DNA of 64,000 bases from Tubulanus polymorphus. Its lineage: Eukaryota; Animalia; Nemertea. The position numbers were made by a program, and so were the translations under genes. The notes under the pieces are model-generated. The model was not told the DNA's origin. It was given only the letters and a program-made list of their open reading frames with translations, and searched no databases. The stretch's first letter is position 1. Each line of letters begins with the position of its first letter. The stretch covers positions 10,976,088 through 11,040,087 of the forward strand of contig NC_134031.1 in NCBI RefSeq assembly GCF_964204645.1. The letters are read 5' to 3'. Shown one piece after another: positions 12,900 to 58,694 of the stretch.

Positions 12900-14150
12900 A
12901 TGGATGAGAAGATAGGATGTGAAATTTGTGGTGAACTTCAAAGAAAAAGTGATATGGCTCGACATATGAAAAAACAGGATGAAAATTATAAACCCCCTAA
13001 AATAACTGCCCAAATTGTAATAAATTATTCTCAAGAAATTATGTTAAAAAACATTCAGAGAAGTGTAAAATTAATGACTCAACGGTTAATGTTGATAGTA
13101 ACGAAAGTAATAATACTTCTGTTGAAGTTGCACCTGAAAATATTTGGAAAAGACCTTTTTTATTTTATGACAAGAATAATATAAAAGATCATTTCTGTGA
13201 GCCTTGTCGAATAAAATATAGCCCTGAAAATATAGAAGATTGGGAGAATCATCAATTTCGTAAAGCACATATAGATAAAATTTCTAATAAATATGAAGCA
13301 GAATTTAATGAAAGAAAAAATAATATATAAGAAAAAATAAAATATGAGAAAACGTTACCAAATAATAAAGAAACACTTGAAAAATGGGAAAAGCAATATA
13401 ATGAATTAGTAAGAAAAACATATTATTGAAAATATTGTAAATTGATTATTACAACAAGTAATTCAAATCTACATAATAGAACAATAAAACATAAAGAAAA
13501 CGTAAGAAGATACCAAGAACTTAATGAAGATCTATTACCAAGCTATGATAGAAAAAAATGCCCACAATGTATTTATGAGTACTTAAGACAAGAAGATTCT
13601 GTGATATTTTGTAATAAATGTGGATGGCAAAAAAGTTTATGGGGTGATGAAAAAACTAGAGATATTCTTATTGAACCAAAATTAAAATATCTAGATGAAA
13701 TTTTTACGATATTTTCTATGGAAGATCATACACCAGAATATAAGCAATGGCTTGAAAAAATGAAAATGATAGAAAATAAAAATGGTGAAATAACTAAGAA
13801 AGATATGATAAAAACAATTATTCCATCAACATGTAACACAAAAGAAAAGAAAATGTATTTATATTTATTATTTAACGATTATTATAAAAAACCTAAATTA
13901 ACAAACAAAGATATGGAAAATATAAAAGAAACATTCACAAACATATTAAAATATTATGTGGATATTAAAATAAGAGATTCAATTAATTATGAATTCTTTT
14001 TAAATAAGATTGTTAATTTTTTGAACATCGATATTATAATTCCATTTGATGAATTAACAAACAAAAAGGAAACAAAGAGAGCGAGATGAAATGTGGAATA
14101 ATATAGAATTTCATTTAAATGAGAAAAATGAAATGGAAGAACCTTAACAA
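12900..14150 (+). pseudogene. Zn-finger protein with VLTF3 (poxvirus A2-like late transcription factor)-like C-terminal part
   Basis: CPQC-x13-CNKCG Zn ribbon and C-terminal INYEFFLNKIVNFL..P...K...(frameshift) DEMWNNI, recalling the VLTF3 NY.Y.L.K...D.IW motif; N-terminal C2H2-like fingers; frameshifted. Confidence 0.5.
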
Positions 14151-14209
14151 TTATATGAAAATGAAGAAGCTAATAGTGATTACGAGTATGATGATATTGA
14201 TTTTCTGTT

Positions 14210-17200
14210 TTAATGACCGTAAGGTAATGTTTTTATTCCGTCACCCAAAATATCTTTTATCATCTTTTATCGTCGAATGGATTTAAGCTAGTTTTTTCAA
14301 CACCATTAATGTACATCTCGTGATCTTCTGATCTTAAACAATTCATTTTATGTTTCATTACAATTGAGTTATATAAAGACTTTATATAATCTTGAAATTC
14401 TACATGTTTATCAACCACATGCTTTGTTATTCCTTTTAACTTTTTTGCTTCATGATCTTTTGTTCTATAACTATAATTTACCAGGAATTTTCTTATTATC
14501 ATTGCTAAATAATTCATGATCTTTTGGATAATTGCTAAAATCAAAATGATGTTTTAATGTTTTTAAGTCTTTTGTTATGTCATTTGTCTTGATTTTTAGT
14601 ATGTTCGCATCCGTATTTTTGGGGATTAATGGGAACTCAGAATTGAATGTTCCATCATCTGTTGATAAATCATAAACATAATCTGTTGGGTTATATATTT
14701 CAAATAAATCTTTAACTTCTTCTGTTAATTCTTTTTCTACATGCCTTAAATTTTTACTTTTAACTATTACATGAATATAGAATTCATCATTATATTTAAT
14801 TGCAAAATCTTTAGGATTATTTACATGTATTCCATAACATTGTGATGATTTCATAACATCTATCTATTTTAAATGTTTTATTATGATAAACTTCTTCACA
14901 ATATTTTTTAATTCTTTCTAATAATTTCTAATCTTGATTGCATAAATACTAACAATATTTATTACCCCAAACATAATTATAAACACCTGCTGAACCATCA
15001 CCCATAAAAAATCCTTTAATAAAATATTCTTTTCTAATGTTTCAGGTTCTCTATTATAAATATTATCAATTATTTCATCAAATGACATATGATTCATTCT
15101 TTGGAAAAATCTTTTATGTAATAATTCATCTCCAATTTTTATTCATCTCCAGTTGGTTTTATTTCGTTTAATTAAACTGTGGTCTTCAGTAACATCTACA
15201 AACCCTAATTTAGTTCTAACTCTATAAATCTTTTTATTTGTTTTATGTCTAATTATATTCTTTAATTTTTCTATCCATTTCTTGTCCAAACATCCATTAA
15301 TCCGTTTATTTATATTAATTCTTTTTCACCATATGAAATATAAAGTTTATTTTGATGAGGTATTATATCTGAAATTCTTCTAATTAATATTTGATTATTA
15401 TATTTTAATAATCTTGGGGTATCAGCTGTTACAGAATCAAAATATAATATTTCAATATGTTTTTCCCCAAAAAGTGGTTGTAGAACATTATAATAAAAAT
15501 CATACATTAATAATTTTGACACTTCTAAAACAGTTGAACCTATAAATATAGGTTTATTAAATTTCATTGACGTTCTTTTTAATTTTACTGCTGTTAAATA
15601 ATCTTCAAATCTTTTATTTCCTCAATGTCTAGGACTTGATTGTAAATGTCTTAATCGTTCAGAATCATTTACTAATTCAATATGATTTCTATTTCTAATA
15701 TTTTCACATGTTTTTCCATAAAAACTATTATTCATTAATTTAAAAAAATCTTTTTCAAAATCTGTTTTTGATATGGTTCTCTGTTGAGTATGGAAATCTA
15801 TATATTTTTCTAACCACTTCGATTGATTAAATTCAATATATCTATGTACTTTCTTTAATTTCATTCCTTGTTTTAGATAAAATTTTAACTTTCTATAATG
15901 AACAATATACTTATATTTATTATTTTGTATTAATATTAATTTTTCTGTAAAAACATGATCTTTCGGTTTTATTTTTTTCTGATATTCACTTAAATAACTG
16001 TCATCTACGGCTAAATGTTCTGGGCAATATGGTAAATTTCTTGTTTTTAACTTTATGTTATCAGGATATTCTAAATCAACTATAAAGAAATAACCAATTG
16101 GTGCATCATCTTCTAAACTCATAATTGCGCTTTCTCAATTAGTTTTATCATCATTTTCAACTTCTGTTTATATAAAATTTTTATATGGTTGAGGTTGCAT
16201 CATTGCCCAACCATATAAATTATTAGTGTCAATATATAATAATTTATATTCATCATTTGCTTTAAAATGTCTATCTCCCATAACACCACTAATTCAACCT
16301 CTAATTGATTTTTCAAATAATAAAACCATGTCTGGTTCTTTTAATAAATCTAATTCTACATTTGTATATTTTAAACCACATTGCCAGGTTAAACCAGGAC
16401 TAGAGTAGCAATAACAAGGATCAACATTAAAATGATTTAAATTAACTTCTCTAAATTTTTCAAATATATCAGCCAATATCATAACATCTGATTTTAAGTG
16501 TAAATCTACTAATTCACCATGATTTTCTATCTTAAAATGATTCCAAAATATTTAATGTTCTATTAAAAACTTCATCTTTCACAAACTCCTCTTTTAATTG
16601 ATCATAAAATTGTTCTTTTGTTAATTCTGTTACATTAAAATCATCATGTGTTTTATGCGCCTTTATATCTCAATAATTTAAATTCTAGTTCATTTGGGTA
16701 ATAATGTCGAGTTATTACAAAATCATTATCAACTAAACTTTTTGCTAAATTATCTAATGAACTTGCTAACAATCTATAAGAATCTAAAAATCTAATGCAA
16801 CCAAATTGAAATGAAATATAATTTTAAGATGTTTTAGCTTATAGTTTAAAATTATAATTTCTTACATTTAAATCATTTATAGCATTATATTCTTCTATTT
16901 CTTGATTAATTGTGCCTAATTTTCCTGATAATTGTTTCGTAAATAGATGAGTATCATAACCCGATAAATTATGAAATAATATTGGTACGAAATTAACTTT
17001 CTTAGCTTGTAAATTGCAATCTTTATGAGCAGCTCCACGATATTTGGAATTTTAATGATCATGATCTCTAACTTTTTTATCAAATGAATAAAAACGTTTT
17101 TCACACTTACAACAATGAGTTGCATAATTAAAATCAATTTCATCTTCTTTTGTTATAACTATTCTTTTGTTTTTGTTTAATAATTTTGCAAAATCACTTT

Positions 17201-17335
17201 CTAATTCAATTATTTTATTACAAAATTCATTTGCTACATCTTCACCTCTAAAACAAATATATTGACTTAAATATAATTCAGAATAATTTGATTTTATATA
17301 AATTCCATAAGCAGCACCTCTTTGATGAATTCTTT
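14210..17335 (-). pseudogene. polB: Protein-primed DNA polymerase B containing an intein (copy 1)
   Basis: VRDHDH, FHNLSGYD, KLMNNSFYGKT, YFD-[intein]-TD, LNPFDDKR; many frameshifts. Confidence 0.92.
14615..15435 (-). mobile_element. Intein in PolB motif C with partially deleted LAGLIDADG endonuclease (decayed)
   Basis: YFD|SVTADTP ... DVTEDHS ... GFFMGDG ... VYDLSTDDGTF..LIPKN|TD; lacks the second LAGLIDADG block present in the 56755-57819 copy. Confidence 0.9.
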
Positions 17336-18724: not shown

Positions 18725-19569
18725 GGCGTAGCCATACTACGCGAGGCAAGCGTGCGCTGGCAGATAACTAGTATCTCACACTGCACATACTACAGTGACA
18801 TTGTGGCATAGGCTCATATTGATGCACGCATTATGAATACGCCGATTTTTCATACAGTGAAATCAAGTTTTTTTGAATGAAGTTAACATTATCATAGATT
18901 TTCATTTAAGTTATTATCGGTCACATTATTACTAAAAAGACTTTGAAAGTGATATACATTGGTTTGTCGATCTTTTTGTACTTTAACCGGCCATAACAAA
19001 TCGATCTGACGTATTTGTTACACCTACTGTAACAACTAGAATTTTCAGTGCACTCGGGAACTAGCTCATCAAAATAAATCCAAAGTCATCAATTCCATCT
19101 TGATAGAATATCTTTTATTCAAATGCTTGGTCGGCTTCCGACCGACCGCAACAACTGCTCAGTACAAACTGCCAACTAAAAGTGTGCGTTGTGTCCCTCA
19201 TTCTGTTTCAACTGACTATTATATCTATATATATATTCCTGCATAGTAACAAAAACTTAGGTATGAAAAACAAAGGTGACAGACAGTGAGTAGACAATTT
19301 GAGCAACAACATGCCATAAACAAAGACAGAAAGAACATATGACTAATTACTTTACAAACACGACTAACAAATACATTTCTAAACAAAACAACAAGTTGCT
19401 ATACTACCACTGTCTTGAGGCGCCTAGTTCCACCGTAGTGTCAAGGGCAGTTGTGAAGCGAACAGATCTGCATAATTAAAAGAGTAAGAATGATCAATGT
19501 AATATGTTTTCATTGATATTATAAAAAAAAACTTTGCCTCGAGAGCACAGGACCGTTGGCCTTCTAGTT
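18725..19569 (+). mobile_element. Second copy of the 768-1137 Helitron-like repeat with an internal insertion
   Basis: Shared blocks and the same 3' end gagagcacaggacc.ttgg..tctagtt. Confidence 0.6.
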
Positions 19570-20090
19570 ATAGTTACTGGATATTGATCAATTTTATATA
19601 ATGTTTCATATTTCCGGTAATCTGTTATTCTACCAACATTTTCCTGAGTTGGATGTAAGCAACTAATAATTGCCCACAGAAAACATTTGTTGTCTTCATT
19701 TTGAAAATTTATAATTGCTTTAGTTCAGATTTATTTTTTAAAGCTGTTTTTTTTACTTGTTGAGGTTTATCATCTAAATATTCTGTTCCTAAAATATTTC
19801 TATTTAAAACTTGTTTGTGTTTGTGTGATTCGAGATGTCTTTATAATTCCTTTTTGTTATAAATTCATTACAAACATCACATTTTATTTCATCCACATTC
19901 ATATTTACTAATCATTCTTTTCTTTCATTGGAATTTTCTGGAGTTTCAAAATCTATTAACATTTTTTATATGATTTGCAGTTTTTTCATGGCGCGATTTT
20001 TGAGGTTTATCGATGAATTTTTTACAATACGCACAATAATATTGATTTTTATTAACATCATTGTTTTCTGTCTAATACTCACTGTCTCCA
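19570..20090 (-). pseudogene. N-terminal fragment of PolB copy 1 with Zn fingers
   Basis: Minus strand YCAYCKK..RHEKTANH, CDVC..RHLESHKH, INFQNEDNKCFLWAIISCLHP, homologous to 25620-25690. Confidence 0.7.
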
Positions 20091-24735: not shown

Positions 24736-27700
24736 ATGGAAGAAAATAAGTACTACTGTTCAACATGTAATATCAATATAGATAAATCCCAAAAATCAAG
24801 ACACAATAAAACTAAAACACATTTAGAGAATAAATTGGAATTATAATATGAAGATGATATATTAGAAACTAAATTAGATGAATTAAAGAATGAAAAAGAA
24901 ACATACAAATGTGATACATGTAATCAATCATTCAGTGATAAAAGATATTATAATGAACATTTAAAATCAAAAAGTCATATTAGAAATAAGAATAATGATA
25001 TTTTAGGTGAGGATTATTTTGATGAAGATAATGATAAGAAACAGATGACAATTAAAAGAATAAGAAATAAATTAAACAATAAAAGACCATACATGGAAGA
25101 TGTAAGAAATTATATTAATTCATTAGATAATAAAAAAGATATAGAAATAACCGAAGCATTTAAAAGTGATATTGGTCCAGCAGCTATTGAGTTTAAATTT
25201 CATAAAGGGAAAACATTAGAAGAAAATAAAATACATTTAGAAAATATGAAAAATATTATAAAAATAATAACTGATGTTGAATACCCTAAATTTAGTATAT
25301 CTTCTAAAGTAAAGTTTATAAAATCTGAAGATAAACCAATATATAATATAAATTCTCATTCACAACATATTATATCTAAACAACATATAGATGAAAAATT
25401 AGATAAATGTTATAATGAAGTAAAAACTAAAATAGAAGAGAAATATTTTGAAGGGTCTGGTTTAATATTTGATGAGATAATATTTATGACTTTACATGTT
25501 TATAACACAAAATATAATAAGTTAGCTAAATCAAAACCAATAGATGAAAATAATGTATCATATTATAAAGAACCAGATATTGAAGCATCAAGTTATATTA
25601 AACCACCATTTAAAACTAATGCTGTTATAAATGTACAAAATTTTGATGATAAATGTTTTCTATGGACAATTATTAGTTGCTTACATCAAACAGAAGATAT
25701 TACACATAGTTTTAGATTAACAAATTATAAACCATTTGAAAATAATTATAAGATAGATAAGTATCCAGTTAGAATTAAAAATATCCCAAAAATAGAAAGA
25801 GATGATAATTTAAGAATAAATGTATTTGATTTAATCAAATTACCAAAAACAAAAGGCAACAATATAAAATATTTTACATTAGAACCTTTATACCTATCAA
25901 AAGAATATGATTCAAATGATGTTATAGATATATTATATTATGAAAATCATTATATGTGGATTAAACAAATCGATTTATTCTTTAGAACAGAAAGTGATCA
26001 TCATCGTAAAATTTATCTATTGAAAATGTTTACATAGATTCAGTAATGAAAGTACATTATTAAATCATAAACAATTATGTGAAAATCATGATTATTGTAA
26101 ATTAGTTTTACCAAATGAAAAAGATAAAATATTAGAATTCAAAAAATATGATTACAAGAATAAAGTACCATTTGTAATATATGGAGATTTTGAATCATTA
26201 AATAAAGAATTAACTGATCAAGATAGAAAAGAAATATATTATAAAAGAAAGAAATTAAATTCTAATGAAAATGATTTTTCAGATGAACCACCAAAAACAA
26301 ATACAATTAAAAAGATTCATCAATCAGCTGCTGCTTTCGGGTTGTATATAAAATCTGATTATCCAGAACTAATTGAAAGTGAATATTATCATTATAGAAA
26401 TGAAAATGTTATCAATCATTTTTGTGACTTATTAATTGAATATGAAATAAGATTTAGTAAATTATTGAATACAAATTATAATGACAGAAGAAGATAAAGA
26501 AGAATTTGTTGCAGGTAAATGTTATTATTGTGAAAAGATATTTAATTATAAAGATAAAAAAGTAAGAGACCATGATCATTTGAACGGAAAGTTTAGAGGT
26601 GCAGCGCATGAGAATTGTAATTTGCAAGCAAAGAAAATACATTTTGTACCAGTTATATTTCATAATCTATCAGGATATGACGCACATTTATTTATCAAAC
26701 AGTTATGCCATTAAATAGAAGAAATCAATAATGAAATAGAAAGATTAAATTCAAATAGATCAAAAGATAAAATACCAACTTATAAATTTAAAATGTTAGC
26801 TAGAACATCTGAGAATTATATATCATTCCAATTTGGTTGCCTAAGATTTATAGATTCATATAGATTTTTAAATAGTTCATTGGATAACTTATCAAAATCA
26901 TTAGTTGATGATGAATTAAGAATATTAAAGCAACACTACCCAAATAATGATGATTTGCAATTAATGAGATATAAAGGTGCAATTCCATATTCTTTCTATA
27001 AAAATCATAATGATTTTAATATAACTGAATTATTGAAAGAACAATTCTATGATGAATTAAAAAATGAATATGTTAAAGATGAAGTATATAATAGAACATT
27101 GAATATTTGGAATCATTTTGGAATGAAAAATCATGGACAATTAGTAGATTCATATCTAAAATCAGATGTATTATTATTAACTGATATATTTGAAAGGTTT
27201 AGAGATGTAAACCTAAAATATTTCAATATTGATCCTTGTCACTGTTATTCTAGCCCAGGTTTAACATGGGATTGTGGATTAAAATTTACAGATATAAAAA
27301 TGGATTTGTTAACAAATATAGATCAATTATTATTATTTAAAAAATCTGTAAGAGGAGGAGTTTCAGGTGTATTAGGTGATAGATATTTCAATGTAAATGA
27401 TAACCCTGGATATAAGTTATTATATATAGATGCAAATAATTTGTATGGTTGGGCAATGATGGAACCACAACCTTATGGAGTATTTGAAATAAGTGAAGTT
27501 TTACAACATGAAAATAATGACAAATTTGATTGGAAGAAAAGAATCCTAGATATTGCAGATGATTCAGATACTGGTTACTTCTTTGTTGTAGACTAGGAAT
27601 ATCCTGAAAACATTAAATTTAAATCTAGAAATCTAGCATACTGTCCCGAACATAGAACTGTAACTCATGAAGAATTATCAAATTATCAAAAAAGAATTAA

Positions 27701-28709
27701 ACCGGAAAATCATATTCATACAGAAAAGTTAATGGTAACTCAAGAAGATAAATATAATTATGTAGTACATTATAGAATGTTAAAGTTTTATCTAAAACAA
27801 GGAATGATCCTAAAAAAAGTACATAGATATATTTCATTCAGTCAATCTAAATGGTTAGAAAAATATATAGATTTTAACACCAAACAGAGAACTGAAGCTA
27901 AAACTGATTTCGAAAAAGATTTCTTCAAGTTAATGAATAATGCATTCTATGGTAAGACTTGTGAAAATATTAGAAATAGAAATGATATTGAGTTAGTTAG
28001 TAATGGTAAAAGGATAAGGCATTTACAATCATATCCTAAGTTTTTAGGTAACAGAATATTTGATGAAAATTTAGCTGCAGTTAAAATGAGAAGAACTTCT
28101 ATGAAATTTAATAAACCAATTTATGTTGGTGCTTCAGTTTTAGAAATATCAAAGCTATTGATGTATGAATTCTATTATAATGTATTACAACCTCATTTTG
28201 GAGAAAAGCATATAGAAATTCTATACTTTGATACTGACAGTTACATATTAAAGATAAAAACTAATAACATAACTGATGATTTAAAAACATTAAAACATCA
28301 TTTTGATTTTAGTAACTATCCTAAAGATCATGAATTGTTTAGCAATGATAATAAAAAGCGACCCGGGAAGTTTAAGGATGAATTAGGTGGTGAAGAAATG
28401 ATTGAATTCATTGGTATAAGATCGAAAATGTATTCATATAAAACTAAAGAACATGAAGCTAAAAAGTTAAAAGGAATTACTAAAAGTGTAGTAGAAAATA
28501 ACATTCATTTCAAAGATTATATCAATTGTATATTCAATGAAGAAGTAAGAAAACATAAGATGAAATGTTTAAGATCAGAAGATCACGAAATGTTTATTGA
28601 AGAGATAGAAAAGGTTAGTTTGAATCCATTTGATGATAAAAGATATATTTTAGATGATGGAATTCATACAGTTGCATATGGTTGCAATTTAGATGAATCT
28701 AAAATTTAA
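24736..28709 (+). pseudogene. polB: Protein-primed DNA polymerase B, intein-free allele, with N-terminal Zn fingers and EndoVII-like domain
   Basis: YGDFES, VRDHDHLNGKFRGAAHENCN, FHNLSGYD, FIDS, YIDANNLYGWAM, KLMNNAFYGKT, YFDTDS, GIRSKMYS, KKLKG. Confidence 0.95.
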
Positions 28710-34433: not shown

Positions 34434-35690
34434 ATGAGTTGGAGTTATATAAGTCCTTCGAAGAATCATAGAATATCTAATGCTATTTAAGCAGAAAGAT
34501 CACATCATATAATTACTCATAATCCTTCTAATTTTAATCCCGATGAAACTTTATATGTTAGAATGCCTCGATTAACACAAAATACTTTTTTATGTTCCAA
34601 ATAGTAACTATTTATCAGCCGATATAAAAGTAACTGGTCATGATAATAATTATGTTGTCGATAATGTTGGGAGATATTTGATTAAAAAATTAGCTGTAAA
34701 GATTGGGCCAGAAACAGTTTTCTCATTAGATAATTATAATTTATTTATGCATTATAAAGATTTATGGTTAAACAAAAGAAAATAGAAATAATATGATATT
34801 TCAAGGCATCCAATCAGAAAACCAAAATGAATTAAGATCTGAAGCCAATAATGCAGTAGTAACTAATGCTGTAGATAATTTGATAAAAAAGATTTATGGA
34901 AGCAAATATAAAATTCCATTAGATTTTGAATTGATAAATAATAATGCGCCTTTATACAAATACGCAATTCAAGAAGATGTTATATTCGAAATAACATTTG
35001 CTCCTGTAAATGAAATTGTATTATCTAGCGTTAATAAAGATATGTGTTATGAATTATCGAATATATGTTTGGAATATAATACAGTAACTGATGAAAATAT
35101 TGCTAGCATAATTCAAACTCAATACAACCAAGGATTTTCATTATTATATGATTATATTGAAAAATTTAAAATTGTATCATATTGATGCCAATGATGAAAT
35201 AATTAATGAAAATATTAACTTCCCAAGAAGATCTATTAAAGGTATATTAATATTTTTTACCATTGCAACATATACTAATGGTGCAATAAATGTTGATAAT
35301 TATTATAATCCTGAAATATCAAAAGTAGAAATAACAATTGAAAGCATAGCAAATAAAACATTTCGTCAAGGAATGAGAATGATAGATCAATGGCCAGAAA
35401 TTAGAAAACATTTTACGAATGAAAAAGTAAAATCATTTGAAAATTGTTATATTAATCAAATTGATTATTATACCGGCAATAAATATGCATTATGGTTAGA
35501 TTTTAGAACAACAGAGGATAATTCATTACATGGTTCTGGGAAAAAACTACAAAATACTAAAGATGGAATACAATTATTCATGAAAAAGAAAAAAGGAGGC
35601 AAAAATTTCAAAATGCACATTTATATTATTATCTGACGCGCAATTTAATATTGTAAATTCACAATTAGATAGTATTATGTTTCAAGTGTT
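34434..35690 (+). pseudogene. Major capsid protein (double jelly-roll), type A
   Basis: ~420 codons; HNPS..P.ETLYVRMP, VDNVGR.LI, YKDLWL, YKIPLDF, L.NI.LEY, INFPRRSIKGIL, YYNPEI.KVEITIE, ALWLDFRT, HGSG; position in the structural block. Confidence 0.75.
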
Positions 35691-37305: not shown

Positions 37306-37917
37306 TTATTTTATAAATTTATATTCATAGGGAAATTGAAGCCGCAGTAATAATTTTGAACCTTTACTATTCTTTAATTTATTCATATATTCATCATGTA
37401 ATTTAGTAGTTATAATTTGATTTTCTTCCAATGATTGTTGCATAGATTTTCTATCTTTATTGTAGAATAAAACTAAAAATCTTATATTCTCCCTAAAGTG
37501 TTTAACAATTGAATTATATTTTTGATTTAAAACCCATGTTGTTATCCCAAAATTTCTTCCAGAGAAAGCTAGATAACATAACTCACTTTCTCTTACTTTT
37601 GAATCATGTAAATTTGCACAATCATCTATAATGAATAATGTATTTGATCCTTTATAAATATCTAATGCTATTTTTATACAATTATCTAAATTTTCTTTTA
37701 CTGTTTTAGGATCTAATATAATAAAATTTTTTATCTTAACTATATCTCTATTATATGTTTTATTCATTTCATAAGTAGGACAGAATAATATTATATTATC
37801 AAAATGATTCTTATATATAGTTTCTAACAAATCTAATATGAAATGTGTTTTACCACAATTGGTTACTCCAGTAACTAACATATTATGCGGTTCAAATATA
37901 AATAAATCTTTATTCAT
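37306..37917 (-). CDS. A32/FtsK-like DNA packaging ATPase
   Basis: Walker A GVTNCGKT, Walker B FIIDD, SGR.FGIT...NQ, R.N; intact ORF. Confidence 0.92.
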   Translation of the reverse strand: MNKDLFIFEPHNMLVTGVTNCGKTHFILDLLETIYKNHFDNIILFCPTYEMNKTYNRDIVKIKNFIILDPKTVKENLDNCIKIALDIYKGSNTLFIIDDCANLHDSKVRESELCYLAFSGRNFGITTWVLNQKYNSIVKHFRENIRFLVLFYNKDRKSMQQSLEENQIITTKLHDEYMNKLKNSKGSKLLLRLQFPYEYKFIK

Positions 37918-38997
37918 TTATTCTTTTAATTTTACTAGATAAAATCCATTCATTAAATTTATCATCATATCCTTTATATTTCACCAAAGAATACTTTTTT
38001 CCTTTAAGAGTTTTTGTTTTCAATACTTTTTCTATTTTGTATTCTATTTCATCTGGATTTGGTACAAGTGATAATTCTTGTTCATAGAAATAACCTAATA
38101 TTTCTTAACATCTTTTATATCTTCTAATTTATAAACAAAAGGTTTAGTTAATATTATCTTTTTATTCTTGAATATTTCTTCAGTAAAATTAGGGGTATAA
38201 CCTTTATAAAATGTTTTTCTATATTTAGATATTCTAACGTGTTGTCCAATTTTAAATTTAGGTTCACCGAAATCATGTGTAACAAACGCACCATATAAAT
38301 TATTCCAAACTATTTCTGAATTATCTTCTTTTCTAGCTTGTATAGGTTTCATATTTATAGAACTATGTTTAGAATTATTATAACCTTTCACTAAATCATC
38401 TAACACATCGATATATTTATATGTTTCATAAGCAGTATAATATTTCCACATTCTAGTTTTCAATGTTTTATTAAATCTTTCTATAATAGATGCTTTTTTA
38501 TCTGAATGCGTTGAAGAATATTCTACATCGTTATCAGATAATAGTTTTTAAAAATGTTTATTATAGAATTCTTTACCTTCATCAAATTGTATCTTACCTG
38601 GAATAGCTTCTTTAAATATTGATTTAAAAGCATTTGTCGCTTCTATTCCAGTTTTATTTTTGATTGGAATTGACCATGCGTATCTACTGAATATATCTAT
38701 AACATATAATATCCAGAAATATCCTTTGTTGTATTCTTCTAAATTCTTCATGTCAATTAAATCTGCTTGCCATTGTTGATCAATATATGAAATCATAACT
38801 TTCCTTGTTAAATAAGTTTTATCCATTTTCTTGTGGATTTGATATGTTGGTTGATTTTGTAGCCATGATTTTAATTCACTATATTTTATATAACCATTAT
38901 CAGATTTAATTTTACCCCATAATTCTGAAACGCTAGAATATGATACTTCACTTTCTGGGTTATAATATAAATCTCTTAAATATTGTTCTTTTTTCAT
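37918..38997 (-). pseudogene. rve integrase with C-terminal chromodomain
   Basis: QQWQADLIDM, VIDIFSRYAW, IQFDEGKEF, KASIIERFNKTLK, YKIEKVL..VKYKGY..KFNEW. Confidence 0.92.
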
Positions 38998-39003
38998 CTT
39001 ATT

Positions 39004-40168: not shown

Positions 40169-40836
40169 TTAACCACTCATTAAAGATTCAACGTATTGTT
40201 CATTATTTGGATCATTATTCCATAATTCAATAAATTTCTTTGCCTTTGTTAACTGTTCTAAATATAACTGTAAATCTAGTTTATTAGATTTGATTTTATT
40301 TTCTTTCTTTTCAAGAGGTCTTAGATTCTTCCAATTCCAAATAAGTTTTTTATTGTGTTCAACATTCATGTTAAATTTAGATATCGGTAACACGTGATCA
40401 ATATGAAAATAATCTCCATAATTATCTATATTCATTTGACTATCGAATTGAAATATAATCCGTGATTTGAGAAATTCATCTGTACAACCCAACAAATTAG
40501 ATAGTGTTTCTGAATGTGTTTCCTTGTTGAATAATTGTGTTAATCTAGATCTCAAGCATTGTTTCAATCTAAAATTAAGATCTGTTTGATATCTTTCTCT
40601 CATATATTCTGTCATATAATCATTATAGCTTCTCTATTATCTTCTCGATATTGTTGAGTATATAGTTTAAAACAAGTTTTACAGCAATATTGAAAACCAT
40701 CTTTGCTAATCTTACGCTTACTAAATTCTGTTATAGCTAATTTATCTAATTCACATTTAGAGCACTTCTTGTAGTATATATTTATGACACCAGTGTTATT
40801 TGTAATATTGATAGTTTGTGGTTGTTCTGGTTCCAT
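40169..40836 (-). pseudogene. HNH endonuclease of large-DNA-virus type with N-terminal Zn finger
   Basis: CSKC..K...EF....SKDG....CKTC; NFRL...LRSRL, LLGC, NYG..FHIDHVLPIS.F, WKNLRPL...EN..KSNK; one frameshift. Confidence 0.75.
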
Positions 40837-42739: not shown

Positions 42740-43577
42740 ATGGATTCACCAAGCGGCCGAAGCACATGTAGTTTAGAAATATGTAGTTCTCCTAAAAAAG
42801 CGAAGCTTTCACCCGCATATAGGAAAAGGAAACCGGTTCATCTCAAACTTAATTTCGGTAAGTCTATTTCTGTTTCGAGACAATATTTCGTAAAATGATG
42901 TATGTATGTTCTAAATACTCAATTTCGTAACTTTATTTTCTATAGACTCAATCGTTAATGATAACGCCGTCGATACGCCTCAGTCAATGAAAACCGTCAC
43001 ATCGTCAGATGGTCAACCCGATCCTCATTATTTAGGACAACTCGTTTACGCGTGCGTGAAAACATGGCAGGGTTCAAAACGTATCGATCTCAGGACATAC
43101 GAGTGCTGCGACCGGAAGCACCAGTTATACCCGACTAAAAACGGTATCGCGTTAGATTTGCAAGAGTGGGTACATATCGACTACTGTAAATCCGATATCG
43201 AACACGAAATTGAGCGAGTCAAACAACAAGCGGGATATGTGGGAGTTATGACTATCGGTCGTTCGAACTTTATTAAAATCTATCGTTCTAGTCATAATAG
43301 TCGTGTATACATCGATATACGGTTCTATATACTATGCGATGCGAAAGGCGAAACCGTACCTTCTAGAAAAGGTGTAAAATTATCTCTCTCTCAGTGGAAG
43401 AAATTAAAAGACATTAATTTTAGCGACGATGTACCCGAACTATCCGATATGAAACCGTGTTGGTACGAACAAAGTCATCAAAATCAAGAATATAGATGCG
43501 CATACTGCGCAAAGGACACTAGCGGAGTTCGTAATGCTCCAGAATATTCCGCATACGCTCCCAGTAAGAATAAATGA
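42740..43577 (+). CDS. Tandem PC4-like ssDNA-binding/coactivator protein, two exons (42740-42857, 42946-43577)
   Basis: RIDLRTY..PTKNGIAL..QEW and YIDIRFY..PSRKGVKLSLSQWKKL; GTAAGT...TTTTCTATAG intron joins a 39 aa basic exon in frame. Confidence 0.8.
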
Positions 43578-44013
43578 ATACGTTTAATTAACGGTCTAAT
43601 AATATGTATTGTTTTTCTAACTTTATTATCCACGATTAAATGAAAATAAACGTGTGTCAATAGAAGTCAATTGTCTTTGTCATTGTTTCGTCGGTCATTC
43701 ATTCCCTTAAAGTTCAGTCATTTCGATATGTCGACTGTCTGTAGCATGATTCCATCAATTGCCTATCAATCAATCCTCTCATTGTTGGCCTTATCTACAC
43801 GATCAAATTCCATCCTTTAGTGTAATCCAAAGCGACTATGATAATTAACATATCAATAAACGAATAACGATGTTCAATTTAACATAATATTTGATAAACT
43901 TTATTATATTAGTAAAGGATAAATATTCTATATAAATAGTAAATGTACAAAAAAATTCATTATTTAAATTCAAAAAAATAGTGGTGACTAGAGGAGAATA
44001 ATAAAACGCGTGT

Positions 44014-46676
44014 CTAAAAACCGTAGGGAAGCGTGTTAAATCTGTTCGTTGGATCAAAAGCCCTTTTAGTGTATACGGCGCGATATATTTTTCGCTCGTC
44101 TCTATTAAAAATGGAACATTTTTTGATGTCTCGATTTATCTTGTTTGGAATGGAAACGTACAAATGATCGTATTTTTCACCGACTATAATATCAACCATT
44201 GATTTAAAGTTGACTATTTGTTTATTTCTAAAATTCAAATTAATTCCTTTCACTTTGCATTCCGATGAGAATTTATTGTCACGCGGACTGAAAACACGGA
44301 ATGCATAGTTTTTCGGACCGGCCGAAACGAATTCCGAAATATAGGCACCATCTCCGTATTTATCTGCCAACTCATCGGTCATATCCCCTAAAAAGTTTCC
44401 AGTTGGCGGATCCCATTGATCAGGTTTAACGGTGTAAATGATTGAGTCGGTATCCGTGTAAAGGGTTCGATCCCCTAGTTTCTCCATATAACTATAGAGA
44501 ATTAGTCGAGCGCGGCTAAGGCGACGCTAGTTTTACCGGAGGATTCGACAAATTCGTCGCGTTTTCTGTAGTGCACCCTTAACACCTCTTCGTTACACAA
44601 CAGTAAATCTTGTATCTCCAAACTATCGTCTAAAAGCATGCTGTACATTTCACCGGGGTCTGAAATATATTTAGCAGTGGTTTTGTTTTCATTTTGACCG
44701 AGTTTACCCCACATGCTATTTAAACATAGTTTGGCGACAGTTCGCATGCCCTTCGCCTTCTTTATGTTATTTTCTTCGAGACGGATACCCTCGCGCTCGA
44801 AATAATCGGATAGAAATTGGTCTTTTTCGGCGCGAGTCATATCGGGAGATGGCCACCCGCTAGCTTCGGTTTTTACTTTTAGAAATTTTCCTATATAGTC
44901 TGCAAATAATCCGGTTTCGCTACGTTCCCAATTCCAAATTTCGAATATACCGATAATACGGTATCCCAATTCAACGGCTTTTTGGATCTCTAAACTGACC
45001 CACGTTCCGGTAATAGCACGTTCGTCTTCCGAGTGGCGACACCTTTCGCGTTGATTACTATCTTCAGCGCACGAGCGACACAAAGGAAAGGATAATTTGC
45101 CATTGGCTCTGTATGGAAGGATGGGTAAATATAAGCCCCGAGGTGGTAAAATTCGGCATTTAATCAACCCGTAATAATCTTTGATATCACCGAAATTTTC
45201 AGTTATAACTGTTGGGTGACCTATTGGATAGCTACAACGACTATTAACGTACGGGTATAGCGAACATATGTCAATTAGCCTTCACCTTTTTGTCCAGCTC
45301 GGGGATTCCACACTTGCCGGTGGGGACTCCTGTCGCCTGGTGCAATGCGAGAGCGGCTTCTCGTTGCGGTGATTTTTCGCATTTACGAATTATGTTATAA
45401 CGAGGGTCATTATCGGCTCGCGCCTTCGCCACGACTAGCGCCCTCGCTAGGCATAAATCGTCATCATTATTTATACTGATGACCGATTTCTTTGTTTTTC
45501 GGAACTGTTCAAAGTCAGTCGTTATCCGCTTTTGTCTAGCACCACCGAGAGGCATCCTAATGAGTGTACAATGAAAGATCAGCCCGTCCAAAGATAGATC
45601 TTCGTTAGACTGAAGAACACTAACAATACGCTCGAGTAAATAATCGATAGTGATTTCTTCTAGAGGTACGTAGAAGTATTCGATATTTCTTTGAAGATTT
45701 TCATGTTCTATCGAAATCCTCAACATATCGGTTGGCCGGGCGTCTAACATCTCACTCATTGCCGCTAGGATGTTACTTAAATACTCGCGGAGTATTGTTT
45801 CGTTATCGCGCGCTGTTACGGTATCGTCCTCTTCCTTATTACTATCATCGTCCTTGTCATTGTTGGTAATCACAATAGCCTTGAACCATTCAGTATTCAT
45901 GTTGAATTTACGGCTATGCTGCGTTCCGGTCTGTAAAATAAATATAAAATTGTTGAAAAACAATCAGGTTTTTTTTTTTTACACGATCTATCGAATTTGT
46001 TCGATAATACTTACTCTAACTAACTTAATATTCCCTCTAATAATTTCATCGGGACTATTATTATTATGACACAGACGTTTTTGTGTCGAATGCTGGTCAT
46101 TGTCGTCATCGTCCCTGGGTCGTTTCTGAGCCGTAGAACTACAATGTTCCCTATGTATTTTCAGATCGTTTATTTCGGTAAAAGATCTTGCGCAATTAGA
46201 ACATGAGAATTCCTTCGCAACCGGTCGTCGTGGTTTACACGATCTCATGTGCCGCTTAAGATTATCTTTTCGAGCCGATCTTTTACCGCAATTATTACAC
46301 TGAAATACAAATTAAATACATATAAATACAAAACGTATAACGTATATATTATGATCATGATAATATATATATATATATGTCTGAGGATTCTTACCGTGAA
46401 AGCGGTTGACGTAGATGGTTGAGGAGATCACCGAACATTTGATATAGGTTGCTTATCGTCTGGTTGGTCAGAAGTCTGAGCTATCGGTGGCACTCTATCC
46501 TGCGCTACCTGCCGATTATTACAATTTTTCATATGCCGCACTAAATTATCTTTTCTGGCGTGTGCTTTACCGCACTCCAGACATTTGAAACCCTTCTTAC
46601 CCTCATGCATCATCTCATGACGTTTGAGATTGAATTTCGAGGCGAAGGTAGCGTTACAAATGCTGCACGAATACAT
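44014..46676 (-). pseudogene. polB: Protein-primed PolB, type B, with spliced Zn-finger exons and large internal deletion
   Basis: DICSLYPY, KLCLNSMWGK, LYTDTDS, FVSAGPKNY, KVKG; N-terminal NDDDLCLARAL joined directly to motif A near 45275; introns 45931-46014 and 46300-46394. Confidence 0.9.
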
Positions 46677-46695
46677 GATCTATAAAAGAGAACAT

Positions 46696-47229
46696 CTTTG
46701 TTACTTTAAAAAAATATCCAAACCACAAATTTTATAATTGAATATTTTATCAAACCTCTTAGTATTTTCCTATTAAAAATGTACAAACCACATTTTCTAA
46801 AACTTGAAAAATTGTCAAACCGGGTTTTGTAAAATTCTAAACTTTATCATTACGATATAGTTTTTACGGATTTCGTTTTAAACAAACTTTGTTACTTTAA
46901 AAAATATCCAAACCACAAATTTTATAATTGAATATTTTATCAAACCTCTTAGTATTTTCCTATTAAAAATGTACAAACCACATTTTCTAAAACTTGAAAA
47001 ATTGTCAAACCGGGTTTTGTAAAATTCTAAACTTTATCATTACGATATAGTTTTTACGGATTTCGTTTTAAACAAACTTTGTTACTTTAAAAAATATCCA
47101 AACCACAAATTTTATAATTGAATATTTTATCAAACCTCTTAGTATTTTCCTATTAAAAATGTACAAACCACATTTTCTAAAACTTGAAAAATTGTCAAAC
47201 CTGGTTTTGTAAAATTCTAAACTTTATCA
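46696..47229. repeat. 190 bp tandem repeat, ~2.8 near-identical copies, between divergent PolB and ATPase genes
   Basis: Unit starts CTTTGTTACTTTAAAA at 46696, 46887, 47077. Confidence 0.92.
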
Positions 47230-47304
47230 ATTTTTGAAATTCAAAATTATTAAAAGTCGGCTACTACGGATAATCAAAAACCCTAAAACCCTAAAACCAC
47301 TAAG

Positions 47305-47955
47305 ATGGCAGAATACGATGGGCCTAGATATCTCGTGCATCCATTTACTATGCTAGTCTGCGGACCTACATCATCCGGTAAAAGTTGGTTTGTAAAGAAA
47401 CTAATTACCGAAAAACTTATAGAAAAACAACCGGAAAAAATTTATTGGTGTTATGGAGAGGCGCAGCCCGAAATGTTTCAAGAATTGGAAAAATTTGATG
47501 TTCAATTTGTCGAAGGATTTTCTGATGAACTATACGAAAAAATAAACGGTAGTAGTCGCACCTTAATAATAGTCGACGATCTGATGAACGAAGTTGGCGG
47601 TAATGACACCTTGGCGGCGTTGTATACTAAGGGCGCTCATCATAGAAATATTTCTATTATCACTATTGTTCAAAACTTATTTCCTAAAGGGAAAGGTTTT
47701 AGGACGATTAGTTTAAATAGTCATTATATCGCCGTATTCAAAAACGCTCGAGATAGAAACCAAATTCGGGTGTTAGCTCAACAAGTGGGACTAAAAAATG
47801 AAATAGAACAGGCTTTCAAAGATGCTACAGAAGAACCACACGGTTATTTGTTATTAGACTTTAAACCGAAAACAGATGATAAATGGCGACTAAGGACTAA
47901 AATATTTCCCAGTGATGTATACCACATCGTTTACAAAACTAAGAAAATCCATTAA
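47305..47955 (+). CDS. A32/FtsK-like packaging ATPase
   Basis: HPFTMLVCGPTSSGKS, IIVDDLM, HHRNIS...VQNLF, RTISLNSHY, HGYLLLDF. Confidence 0.93.
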   Translation: MAEYDGPRYLVHPFTMLVCGPTSSGKSWFVKKLITEKLIEKQPEKIYWCYGEAQPEMFQELEKFDVQFVEGFSDELYEKINGSSRTLIIVDDLMNEVGGNDTLAALYTKGAHHRNISIITIVQNLFPKGKGFRTISLNSHYIAVFKNARDRNQIRVLAQQVGLKNEIEQAFKDATEEPHGYLLLDFKPKTDDKWRLRTKIFPSDVYHIVYKTKKIH

Positions 47956-47989
47956 AAGAAAGCTAAGGTCTACTATTTATAAAAGGAAG

Positions 47990-48388
47990 ATGGTTCCTCG
48001 TAACAATAAATCCGTTGATCGGTTAAAAAAGTACGTTCATCATTTTCACGTGTTGGCAAGTTGTAAGAAAAAGCAACGAGAAGCGTTGATCGAATCGGCA
48101 CCAGTAGAACTAATTAACTGTATTTGTGAAATATCTAAAAACAGTTTACTGGGAAATATAGAACATAGCGACAAAGAGAAACGGGTGTTACAACAACATA
48201 AACGATACATTCGTATGTTAGCGAATAAATCTATAGCTGTTAAACATAAAAGGAGAGTTATTTCTCAAAAGGGAGGATTTCTGCCATTCATATTGACACC
48301 TCTCTTGTTGAAACCGATTCTAGAATCTATCGTGACTAATGTTTTAAGTAAAGCCGCGAACAAAGTAATAGATAAAGTTTCGTCATGA
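47990..48388 (+). CDS. Conserved Polinton basic/amphipathic virion protein
   Basis: LINCICEI..N.L.GN, QKGG|FLP adenain-type cleavage motif followed by an amphipathic helix; start uncertain. Confidence 0.7.
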   Translation: MVPRNNKSVDRLKKYVHHFHVLASCKKKQREALIESAPVELINCICEISKNSLLGNIEHSDKEKRVLQQHKRYIRMLANKSIAVKHKRRVISQKGGFLPFILTPLLLKPILESIVTNVLSKAANKVIDKVSS

Positions 48389-49071
48389 AGAACGTAGAGA
48401 AATTGGTTATTCTACCGGAAGCAATGTTACCGCAAGTACAAGCATTCGTAGCTAGTCTACAGGGAAATGAATCTATAACTAAAAAACCAGTTACCGGAAA
48501 TCCGTTAAACGATAACAACCTATCCGATGATTTGAAATATCTAAAATATAACCCGTTGCTACAGCAAGCTATACAAAAAACGGAGCACGATAAACAATCA
48601 CTACCTCGAAAAATTGAAGATATCAACGTCGTTAATAATCCTTATTCGACTGAAAAAATTGTCGAACGTATACCGGTTAAATTCCGGAATAAGTGTAAAT
48701 CGTTATAAACATTTTTCACAGAAAATCCAAACGTTTTGAGATGGAACGAAAAAGGAGAAATAATCTACAAGAATAATTTAATTCCTGGAAGCAATATTTC
48801 TGACCTCGTTTACGTTTCGTTAGTATTAACTACATTAAACCAAAGCTATATTGGATTAGAAGATTATATGTCAGCGATAAACGAACTTAATATTCCTACT
48901 AGCCTAATAAATAATAAAATGTTAAAGAGACGGCTCAAAGGCGAACTTACCGTAGATTTAGATGCGTCGTTGTCTCCAGTAAAAAAGAAGGCAAAAGTAG
49001 ATCAGCGCGGTTCCGGACTGCGTAGTAAGCGAGCTAGGAATGTCGATTTCACCAATTGGCTTAGCTTTTAA
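48385..49071 (+). pseudogene. Conserved Polinton protein, one internal stop
   Basis: ORFs 48385-48708 and 48736-49071 in the same frame; WNEKGEIIY...IPGSNISDL, ELNIP.SLI.N. Confidence 0.7.
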
Positions 49072-49168
49072 TGGCTTCAAAATGCAATTAAAATGTATTG
49101 TTCAATTGTTCGTAGTATTATTGCGCAACTGAACGTGTTCGGGCACGTTTTGATTTCCATTTGATACG

Positions 49169-49696
49169 ATGGTCGTTAACGTGGTGAACATCGTCTCTAC
49201 GGCGTGTTTGAATAGTTCATTAAATCTTACCGATGTCGCTAGAATCTCGCACGATGTAATTTACAACCCTTCCAAGTTTAGCGGGTTAATATGGAAGAAT
49301 CGTAAAATAGAAGGTAATTGTCTATTATTCGGCAATGGAAAGATGGTAATTACTGGGTGTAAAAGTAAATCTAATAGTCGACGGAGTACGAGACAATTTG
49401 CGCGTTTACTGCAAAAGATGGGATACAACGTGAAGTTAAACAACTTCAAAATACAAACAATAACCGGTGTCGTTAGAACTGGTCGGCATATTGACTTGAT
49501 GAAATTTTCGAACTATTGTTGTACAGCGGAATATAACACAGAAATACTCCCCGGTTTAGTGTATATGTGCGAAAATGGAGTTAAATGTATTGTTCATAAT
49601 GGCGGAACCATAATACTAGCCGGCGCAAAACAAACAAAAGAACTACAAAAAGCGTACGAAGAAATTTTATTCTACATCATCTTATGTTCTAAATGA
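49169..49696 (+). CDS. Divergent TATA-binding protein (TBP)-like protein
   Basis: Two TBP repeats: VNIVST..L...LNL, YNPSKFSGLI, LLFGNGKMVITGCKS, ARLLQKMG, FKIQ, EYNTEILPGLVY, GTIILAGAK....KAYE. Confidence 0.85.
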   Translation: MVVNVVNIVSTACLNSSLNLTDVARISHDVIYNPSKFSGLIWKNRKIEGNCLLFGNGKMVITGCKSKSNSRRSTRQFARLLQKMGYNVKLNNFKIQTITGVVRTGRHIDLMKFSNYCCTAEYNTEILPGLVYMCENGVKCIVHNGGTIILAGAKQTKELQKAYEEILFYIILCSK

Positions 49697-49865
49697 ATAA
49701 ATTAATAAAAGGCGTGTTATCACAAATATTTTATTGTAAAAATAAAGATGAATTGGCGAAAATTGTTTTGTTGTTGTTGTTTGGACCGAGACGATCCAAG
49801 TTTTATTTGTAAATTCAATCGAATTAACTGCGTGAGCACGTGTTGTAACGGAAATACCGTTATCA

Positions 49866-51758: not shown

Positions 51759-51760
51759 AT

Positions 51761-52168
51761 ATGAGGGCTATTTGCGAAATAGATCACGATGTCTGTTGTA
51801 GATATTACGCAAATCAAAGCGGTGCCGGAGTCGACGTGTACACATCATCGCCTATACAAGGCGGTGCTGGATTTGCTTCTGTTTTAGGCGGTCTCGCTCG
51901 ACCGGCGATACCCCTATTGAAAAATATGGCTAAACGAGCGGTGCCTCATTTACTAAGAACGGGTTTGCACGTTGCGAGCGATGTCGTAGGTGGTAAGAAT
52001 TTTGCCACAGCCATTAAAGATCGCGGATTAGAAACAATGGGTCGTATTATCCGGGGTAAAGTGCGAACCGGTACAAAACCATTAAAAGGTCAAAAGAGAA
52101 AACGAAAACAGCGGATTATTTCCACAGGCAAACGTATAAAGAGAAGTGTTAGCGGCGAAGCGTATTAG
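51761..52168 (+). CDS. Core/membrane-lytic precursor-like virion protein
   Basis: YYANQSGAG, IQGGAGF glycine motifs, amphipathic helix, basic tail; lies between penton and MCP. Confidence 0.75.
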   Translation: MRAICEIDHDVCCRYYANQSGAGVDVYTSSPIQGGAGFASVLGGLARPAIPLLKNMAKRAVPHLLRTGLHVASDVVGGKNFATAIKDRGLETMGRIIRGKVRTGTKPLKGQKRKRKQRIISTGKRIKRSVSGEAY

Positions 52169-52173
52169 ACAAG

Positions 52174-53484: not shown

Positions 53485-53489
53485 TAACT

Positions 53490-55889: not shown

Positions 55890-56238
55890 TTTGTTTCTGT
55901 GTATCAAATGATGTATTTAAATTTCCCATTATTGGGGATCTTGTTTCAACTTGCGCACCTAAAATACATTTCAAATAAGTTCTAATTGATTGATTTATTC
56001 TTTGTATACCTGATTTAGTAAAACCTTCACTATTTTCTAAAATAAAATAAACCCAACCATTATTGTTTTCTTGTTTTAAATGATCATAAAATTTCGGTAA
56101 TTTATTGAAATTTAATGTTTCTAAATCCTTTGTTTCTATTTTACCATAACCTAATTTATTATTATAGATATTATAAAAGCTATTAGATGGTATGGGAAGT
56201 GTACAATATGCTGCAACATTTTCAGGGCAAGGAAACAA
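55890..56238 (-). pseudogene. Fragment of a type-A gene homologous to 31857-32708
   Basis: NNNGWVYFILENSEGFTKSGIQRINQSIRTYL.CILGAQVETRSPI. Confidence 0.8.
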
Positions 56239-56297
56239 TTAATTGAAAATGAAGAAGCCAATAGGGATTTCGAGTATGATGATATTGATTTTCTGTT

Positions 56298-58619
56298 TTA
56301 ATGGCCATAAGGTAATGTTTTTATACCATCATCTAAAATATGCCTTTTATCATCAAATGGATTCAAACTAGCTTTTTCAAATTCATTAATGTACATTCTC
56401 AAGATTTTCTGATCTTAAACAATTCATTTTATGTTTCATTACGATTGAGTTATATAAACACTTTATATAATCTTGAAATTCTATATGTTTATCAACCACA
56501 TGTTTTGTTATTCCTTTTAACTTTTTAGCTTCATGATCTTTTGTTCTGTAACTATACATTTTACTTCTTATCCCAACAAATTCAATCATTTCATCACCCC
56601 CTAATTCATCTTTAAATTTACCAGGAATCTTTTTATTATCATTGCTAAATAGTTCATGATCTTTGGGATAATTGCTAAAATCAAAATGATGTTTTAATGT
56701 TTTTAAGTCTTTTGTTATGTCATTTGTCTTGATTTTTAGTATGTACGCATCAGTATTGAACGCAATTAATGGAAATCCACAGCTAAATGTACCATCTTCA
56801 GTTGATAAATCATAAACATAATCTGTTGGGTTATGTATTTCAAATAAATCTTTAACTTCTTCTGTTAACTCATTTTCTACATGGCTTAAATTAAAGCAAT
56901 TTGGTTTAGATTTAATCAATCTAATATTCATATTAAATCCTAATGAATTGCATAATATATTCAATCCTGATATAGCAACTTTTCCTTTTCGAGCTAAAGA
57001 TATCGTTTTGCGGTTTTTGAAACTTTTTGAACCATCTGCAGCATAGAACCCAATGAAGAACCATTTTCTTAAATTATTTTTTGCATTTAATACATAATCT
57101 GGAACTATCTTTTCTTTTGTTGAAGTATTACTTTTCACTATTGCATGAATATAGAATTCATCATTATATTTTATAGCAAAATCTTTAGGATTATTTACAA
57201 GTATTCTATAAACTGCTGATGATTTCATAACATCCATGATTCTAAATGTTTTATGTGAAAAAACTTCTTCACAGAATTTCTTTATTCTTTCTAATAATTT
57301 TAAGTCTTGATTGCATAAATACCAACAATATTTATTACCCCAAACATAATTATACACACCTGCTGAACCATCACCCATGAAAAATCCTTTAATAAAATAT
57401 TCTTTTTCTTGTAATGTTTCAGGTTCTATATTATAAATATTATCAATTATTTCATCAAATGACATATGATTCATTCTTTGGAAAAATCTTTTATGTAATA
57501 ATTCATCTCCAATTTTTATATCAGTTGGTTTTATTTCATTGCCATTTCGTTTAATTAAACTATGATCTTCTGTAACATCTACAAACCCTAATTTTGTTCT
57601 AACTCTATAGATTTTCTTATTTATTTTATGTCTAATAATATTCTTTAATTTTTTCCATCCATTTCTTGTCCAAACATCCATTAATTCATTTATTTGTATT
57701 AATTCTTTTTCACCATATGAAATATAACATTCATTTTGTTTTGGAATTATTTCTGAAATTCTTCTTATCAATATTTTATCATTAAATCTGAATCATATTG
57801 GGGTGTCAGCTGTTACAGAATCAAAATATAATATTTCAATATGCTTTTCCCCTAAAAGTGATTGTAAAACATTATAATAAAAATCATACAATAATAATTT
57901 TGATACTTCTAAAACAGTTGAACCAATGAGTATAGGTTTATTAAATTTCATTGACGTTCTTTTTAATTTAACTGCTGTTAAATAATCTTCAAATCTTTTA
58001 TTTCCTAAATGTCTAGGGCTTGATTGTAAATGTCTTAATCTTTCAGAATTATTTACTAATTCAATATCATTTCTATTTCTAATATTTTCGCATGTTTTTC
58101 CATAAAAACTATTGTTCATTAATTTGAAGAAATCTTTTTCAAAATCTGTTTTTGATATGGTTCTCTGTTGAGTATTGAAATCTATATATTTTTCTTATCA
58201 CTTCGATTGATTAAATTCAATATATCTATGTACTTTCTTTAATTTCATTCCTTGTTTTAGATAAAATTTTAACATTCTATAATGAACAATATAATTGTAT
58301 TTATTATTTTGAGTAAGTATTAATTTTTCTGTAAAAACATGATCTTTAGGTTTTATTTTCTTCTGGTATTCACTTAAATAACTATCATCTACAGTTAAAT
58401 GTTCTGGGCAATAAGGTAAGTTTCTTGTTTTAAACTTTATATTTTCAGCATATTCTAAATCAACTACAAAGAAATAACCAATTGGTGCTTCATCTTTTAA
58501 ACTCGCAATTGCGCTTTTCCCAATCAGTTTTATCACCATTTTCAACTTCTGTTAATATAAAATTTTTGTATGGTTGAGGTTGCATCATTGCCCAACCATA
58601 TAAATTATTGGCGTCAATA
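56298..58619 (-). pseudogene. polB: Protein-primed PolB (3' half) containing a full-length intein (copy 3)
   Basis: IDANNLYG, MNNSFYGKT, YFD-[intein]-TDAY, GIRSKMYS; 5' part truncated at a SINE. Confidence 0.93.
56755..57819 (-). mobile_element. 355-codon intein with LAGLIDADG homing endonuclease; single nonsense codon at position 9
   Basis: Block A SVTADTP, block B VTEDH, LAGLIDADG blocks FIKGFFMGDG and FFIGFYAADG, block F VYDLST, terminal FN then Thr+1; absent in the 28221-28241 allele. Confidence 0.95.
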
Positions 58620-58620
58620 T

Positions 58621-58694
58621 ATGGTTTCACTAGGATTCGAACCCTCAATCTCTCACTTGGGAGTCAAACACCTTATCCACCCTGCCACAGGACA
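58621..58694 (-). mobile_element. tRNA-derived SINE head (pseudo-tRNA)
   Basis: Minus strand has A box TGGCAGGGTGG and B box GGTTCGAATCC at tRNA spacing; stems pair poorly. Confidence 0.6.

Follow-up and report, generated by a model that had tools for sequence, protein, structure and literature searches.

An insertion site for inteins within the motif YGD/TDS (here and below the slash marks the insertion point), known as pol-c, is described for the family B DNA polymerases of Mimivirus and archaea (PMC549080). Viral polymerase inteins listed by a 2018 survey come from phycodna-, irido- and mimiviruses and from unclassified viruses, and the same survey reports inteins to be absent from metazoan genomes (PMC5784728). 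Polintons have protein-primed family B polymerases (pPolBs), and nuclease inserts are on record for these enzymes: those of nematode Polintons were described as HNH and VSR domains (PMC10748475), and one sentence in PMC11071308 suggests that such inserts resulted from intein invasions. Our full-text search of openly available articles did not turn up a Hint-type intein in the polymerase of any Polinton, and an earlier mention may exist elsewhere. Here we analysed a 64,000-nucleotide stretch of DNA, hereafter the window, that holds Polinton polymerases with and without an insert at this site.

The window is AT-rich and consists of decayed pieces of Polintons piled up with other transposons. The hallmarks of Polinton/Maverick elements, pPolB (PF03175), retroviral-type integrase (PF00665) and packaging ATPase (PF04665), are all present (Table 1). 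The interval 34772-35636, which we took by eye to be capsid-like, had no match in Pfam or NCBIfam, and no terminal pair was seen among the 25 inverted repeats listed out of 115. A second, GC-richer Polinton occupies 42915-54500 and includes genes for TBP (49154-49696; Pfam TBP E 1e-34), the PC4 coactivator (42915-43577; E 4e-18) and an integrase with a chromodomain. We also observed a nearly perfect tandem array with a period of 52 nt (53998-54496), another near-perfect repeat with a period of ~190 nt (46696-47229), and remnants of a piggyBac-like transposase on the minus strand (3501-5011; Pfam DDE_Tnp_1_7).

Table 1. Positions within the window of the polymerase copies, their inteins and associated Polinton genes.
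Feature	Positions	Strand	Remarks
pPolB copy A, occupied allele, interrupted upstream	14146..17335	-	further piece at 19551-19724
Intein of copy A, 821 nt	14615..15435	-	frameshifts, stops, 234-nt internal deletion
pPolB copy B, empty allele, broken	24847..28709	+	2 frameshifts, 2 stops; Pfam DNA_pol_B_2 E 7e-12
Empty pol-c site (motif C, YFD/TDS) in copy B; insertion point 28232/28233	28221..28244	+	
Packaging ATPase of the Polinton array holding copy B	37306..37917	-	Pfam Pox_A32 E 3e-10
Retroviral-type integrase, split by a stop	38095..39003	-	Pfam rve E 2e-6, rve_3; 80-86% to integrase of L002
Broken HNH-like ORF, possible alternative cutter	40169..40836	-	weak Pfam HNH_4 E 0.63; homologue directly behind pPolB in L001-L003
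Fourth pPolB, other Polinton group, empty site YTD/TDS	44014..45963	-	GC ~40%; same group as occupied P0003
pPolB copy C fragment, occupied allele	56234..58622	-	upstream end cut off at 58622
Intein of copy C, Ser…Asn, +1 Thr, block B TEDH	56755..57819	-	355 codons; one stop near its start; model pLDDT 94
Second LAGLIDADG-type motif of copy C intein, FFIGFYAADG	57031..57060	-	deleted in copy A
First LAGLIDADG-type motif of copy C intein, FIKGFFMGDG	57367..57396	-	

Copy A reads ILYFD/SVTADTP…PKN/TDANILKIK and copy C reads ILYFD/SVTADTP…AFN/TDAYILKIK, the insert of copy C being 1065 nt long and in frame. An earlier reading of this DNA from its letters (the sequence-only reading) had described copy B as free of the intein, and direct reading of the plus strand confirmed this: its pol-c site is EILYFDTDSYILKIK, with L at 28221, D ending at 28232 and T starting at 28233. 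By itself, the empty site is the ordinary state. All three polymerases are pseudogenes, and none could act today. The internal deletion in copy A takes out the second endonuclease motif, in addition to its stops and frameshifts, and copy C contains in-frame stops, of which one lies near the start of the intein. An intact protein, P0127, is 89% identical to copy B in amino acids.

The insert of copy C has the residues of a class 1 Asn-type intein, namely an N-terminal Ser, a terminal Asn, a +1 Thr and the block B motif given in Table 1. Its penultimate residue is Phe (Lys in copy A) and not His; across 177 related pol-c inteins this position is His in 91 and Lys in 58. In Pfam searches LAGLIDADG_3 scored above its cut-off (E 2e-7), and Intein_splicing fell just below (E 8e-8; 32.6 bits, cut-off 35.8) in copy C and above it in the relative P0002 (42.4 bits). 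A structure model of the unbroken 346-aa part of the copy C intein (pLDDT 94.3) found as its best PDB matches the intein homing endonucleases 7qsu (E 8e-15), PI-PkoII, PI-PfuI and PI-SceI, followed by I-DmoI. Within this model the Hint fold matches 7qsu, 2cw7 and 1dq3, and an I-DmoI-like fold is matched at E about 1e-6; the best named viral matches were the PolBs of a phycodnavirus, pandoraviruses and a marseillevirus. The endonuclease is of the DOD type, with two LAGLIDADG motifs bearing acidic catalytic residues in copy C and its complete relatives. A shift in base composition was also considered and ruled out, the GC content being 0.25 in the intein and 0.24-0.26 in the exteins. An in-frame insert of this length at the most conserved motif, combined with an intein fold, cannot be put down to chance. 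We conclude that copies A and C carry a LAGLIDADG intein at the pol-c site of archaeal and giant-virus PolBs, with splicing and cleavage as its predicted activities.

Next, we compared the three copies with each other and with their relatives. Identity between copies A and C is 93.5% across 630 nt upstream of the site and ~90% within the intein, and their differences comprise 20 synonymous, 18 non-synonymous and 3 involving a stop in 230 codons. They most likely inherited a single insertion from a common ancestor. The sequence-only reading had called the three polymerases closely similar and treated copy B as the counterpart of A and C. This overstated the kinship, as C and B are only 77.6% identical in nucleotides and belong to different subfamilies. 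Copy B groups with P0127-P0129, and forcing it together with A and C was rejected (p-AU 0.0002). The sister and nearest empty relative of A and C is instead P0130/L004 (85-87% nt), and, of the 24 bases proposed as the target, copy B has 6 that differ from those flanking the intein. Occupancy inside the window follows subfamily, and no co-conversion was seen among A, B and C, identity between A/C and B showing no rise toward the insertion site. Divergence between C and L004 was likewise examined at the site and was not significantly raised (9 differences in 36 nt, a level reached in 101 of 925 windows).

Beyond the window, 12 Polinton inteins formed one clade (support 100/100) against 29 inteins of other family B polymerases; 32 outgroup rows had been intended, and 3 were dropped when the pattern did not cut them out. 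Uninterrupted intein-bearing pPolBs among the search matches are P0001, P0002, P0003, P0006, P0007 and P0158, accompanied by many fragments. The P0001 intein is 61% identical to that of copy C. Both LAGLIDADG motifs, each with its Asp, are kept in all eight full-length inteins aligned, and the endonuclease part is full-length and 42-58% identical to C in six complete relatives. P0003 belongs to the other deep pPolB group, beside the fourth polymerase of the window, and its intein is 48% identical to that of C, so that the predicted intein is present in both deep groups. The intein query had no match in the viral contig collection or in the first metagenome scan. The named eukaryotic relatives of the extein (46-48%) belong to a spider, a leafhopper and a mussel, which makes an animal host probable.

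Several further matches were of separate interest. P0411 and P0442-P0455 come from a 55-member cluster of short, almost intein-only ORFs whose contigs are long (those listed measure 19-825 kb); after the intein, several of these ORFs have TN and not TD. The cluster probably represents decayed multi-copy Polintons of another host. P0158, an intein-bearing Polinton polymerase, is assigned to the MAG of a bacterial symbiont, Candidatus Thiodiazotropha, and is probably host DNA in the bin. Related inteins were also observed in proteins with type II topoisomerase domains (P0004 and others), some with more than one copy, indicating that the intein family has moved between genes.

We then mapped occupancy onto the polymerase tree. 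In a set of 130 rows, of which the 12 occupied include two identical pairs and from which P0003 was left out as unalignable, nine occupancy changes were needed, all forced by well-supported branches, compared with a mean of 11.7 after shuffling. Occupancy is therefore slightly clustered, yet does not form a single clade. A 49-row maximum-likelihood tree again required nine changes; because its empty rows (38 of 118) were mostly chosen as neighbours of occupied rows, this tree favours interleaving, and the count was repeated on all 130 rows. Forcing A, C and P0001 into one clade was rejected (p-AU 2e-49), and the empty neighbours of occupied alleles are 87-92% identical to them in amino acids. 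Incongruence between intein and extein within the NELVASD group gave p-AU 0.009 for one grouping on exteins and 0.09-0.38 in the other three tests. As judged from these alignments, occupancy is discordant with the polymerase tree.

A second line of evidence came from a pair of nearly identical relatives with empty sites. L002, a single assembled metagenome contig, and L003 are 99.55% identical over 5125 nt, and 15 of their 23 differences fall within 52 nt, at -43 to +9 across the empty site (binomial probability about 1e-20; the prior chance of covering this very site is ~1% per tract). In this region L003 is matched by L006, P0129 and P0394. The upstream part of the L002 tract best matches copy B (39/43) and the downstream part A and C (8/9), and at either end the similarity to the known candidate donors is lost again within a few bases. 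Conflict with the tree was also concentrated here: tree-conflicting sites were enriched at most 45 nt from the site in four quartets holding B and L004 (Fisher p 0.0002-0.001), whereas the two quartets without B showed no enrichment (p 0.06 and 0.14). Together, the tract and the quartets suggest that the site region was exchanged between subfamilies, although the signal is undirected. At the protein level, P0418 and P0459/P0461 have inteins 96-97% alike and differ in six adjacent residues 11-16 aa upstream of the site, where P0459 exactly matches the empty P0145 and the occupied P0158. This is a possible second site-proximal tract, read from the protein sequences.

As controls, we examined eight other near-identical pairs from distant families. 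Over -45 to +15, six had no difference, one had 2 (0.9 expected) and one had 8 (1.9 expected). Dense 52-nt windows in these pairs held 2-14 differences, indicating that short mosaic tracts are common in Polintons. In one pair from a distant family with no intein seen, L069 and L072, a tract of 14 differences starts 112 nt upstream of motif C, and 8 more differences lie at -45 to +15.

Taken as a whole, the comparisons make it fairly probable that the intein was acquired once, from a giant-virus-type polymerase, and has since been maintained among related Polintons by homing through splicing, cutting and repair. In such a cycle the intein would splice out of the polymerase and restore motif C, and its endonuclease would cut the DNA of a co-resident Polinton at an empty motif C. 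With an occupied copy as the repair template, the intein would then be inserted together with short flanks; alternatively, repair from a differing empty copy would leave the site empty with a short swapped tract, as in L002. Homing would act mainly within polymerase subfamilies, so that intein subclades would track extein groups, and the subclades observed do match these groups. The sequence-only reading had proposed homing on the strength of occupied and empty copies in one locus. Coexistence of the two allele types is seen both in the window and in reads, and the homing proposal is partly supported, by discordant occupancy and by the conversion tract in a relative; copy B as the target and TDA as the mark of occupancy find no support. 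With occupancy off the extein tree and a tract lying on the site, the sequence part of the case against homing, in which presence strictly follows the extein phylogeny and conversion tracts are absent, does not hold.

The same agreement between intein and extein groups, which is large, would also be expected from an old gain followed by vertical descent and many precise losses through recombination with empty alleles, in which there is no ongoing homing and the tracts are ordinary recombination at a conserved motif. Copies A and C, which share one insertion and whose differences look like decay, fit this account, as do the mosaic tracts elsewhere, and the homing-cycle model as set out in PMC1654191 itself includes precise loss by recombination. 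That model also expects the endonuclease to decay without homing (PMC1654191), yet it is still full-length in the six complete relatives. Moreover, occupied alleles are a small minority in sets gathered with the extein (2 of the top 120 matches; 1 of 80 loci), so very many losses would be needed, and P0003 sits in the other pPolB group. We therefore regard descent with loss as unlikely, and return to homing among related Polintons as the preferred reading.

Where homing would take place is a separate question, on which raw reads have some bearing. Four runs of one organism contain 43-46% of the words of copy C, so the runs may come from another individual or a close species. In X6, raw reads under the same species label (1934 Mb, surveyed for reads at at least 80% likeness), intein depth was 130-260, which implies many occupied copies unless the genome is smaller than ~15 Mb. 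Empty copies are present too: an exact skip of the 1065 nt is seen in 31 reads, which have 19 different starts, and B/L004-type letters mark two additional joint classes, of 26 and 10 reads. Most X6 reads lack the stop found in copy C. A marine metagenome run, X5, had a small word share in short pieces and was left out of the results.

A multi-copy occupied family, with occupied and empty copies sharing one locus and the DNA of one species, is what would be expected of a germ-line drive between integrated copies, in which B-type alleles are the target and TDA is a change linked to invasion. High copy number is explained equally, however, by transposition of one occupied founder, every copy in the window is broken, and the distance of copy B (77% identity, another clade, an altered target) argues against its being a target. 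Copy B is most likely a bystander, and possibly a resistant allele. The sequence-only reading had noted that both occupied alleles change TDS to TDA, and both window copies, as well as the fragment P0248, do read TDA. As a mark of occupancy TDA was tried and rejected: it occurs in none of 177 other occupied pol-c sites, 157 of which read TDS, and in 5 of 117 empty proteins, and L002 is empty yet reads TDA. Because the same Ala codon lies within the L002 tract, TDA may nevertheless have been carried along in this lineage as a marker of co-conversion. We consider this form of germ-line drive quite improbable; homing during virus replication or co-infection would explain the data equally well as drive between endogenous copies.

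It is very improbable that the L002 tract was made by another nuclease or is an assembly artefact, leaving the intein real and the tract uninformative about it: L002 is a metagenome contig with an HNH-like ORF at 4079-4849 immediately after pPolB, and Polinton-like viruses are reported to have genes for HNH homing endonucleases (PMC12220804), but the Pfam match of this ORF is weak (E 0.63), the gene is present in both L002 and L003, the tract ends at +9, a long way short of the gene, and in its upstream part matches real sequence in copy B, and the divergence of the known donors close to both tract ends does not allow a chimera with them. The free-standing HNH-like ORF adjoins pPolB in L001-L003, but in the window it lies at the array's far end.

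Homing among related Polintons could also be placed within a wider history, in which a giant-virus intein colonised Polintons and an arms race followed in animal genomes, with homing between integrated and replicating copies and cross-subfamily repair yielding mosaic, resistant empty targets such as B and L002. We put this forward tentatively, as a possibility that is rather doubtful at present. If true, it would mean that metazoan nuclear DNA, which is considered to be free of inteins, harbours active ones together with a natural homing drive. In any case, with a clade of full-length pol-c inteins in the polymerases of Polintons, the known range of this parasite grows by a new class of viruses, one that integrates into cellular genomes, likely including those of animals. 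The clade also suggests that Polintons and giant viruses have been in contact. These elements keep occupied, empty and converted sites next to one another, a multi-copy natural record that allows tests of the homing cycle and of target resistance through sequence comparison alone.

Among known systems, the closest are the pol-c inteins of archaeal and giant-virus family B polymerases. The Mimivirus PolB intein, as described in PMC549080, shares the site, the Ser start, the Asn end, the +1 Thr, a length of ~350 aa and a LAGLIDADG domain, and the nearest outgroup pol-c inteins are 35-39% identical to the Polinton intein. The Polinton inteins nevertheless form a clade of their own apart from other pol-c inteins, and their host, unlike that of the Mimivirus and archaeal inteins, is the protein-primed PolB of an integrating Polinton with many decaying copies in a cellular genome. 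The HNH and VSR inserts in Polinton pPolB2 are likewise nuclease domains within Polinton polymerases (PMC10748475; PMC11071308). In contrast to those inserts, for which the main text of PMC10748475 does not use the word intein, a complete Hint splicing domain and a LAGLIDADG endonuclease are here found at catalytic motif C, with matching empty alleles. Finally, patchy occupancy, a conserved endonuclease and an apparent exchange of flanks beside the site are shared with the homing cycle with co-conversion as outlined in PMC1654191 and PMC10643990. The partners in that cycle are alleles of a cellular gene, whereas here they are paralogous copies of a virus or transposon, and the clearest tract, that of L002, lies on an empty allele.
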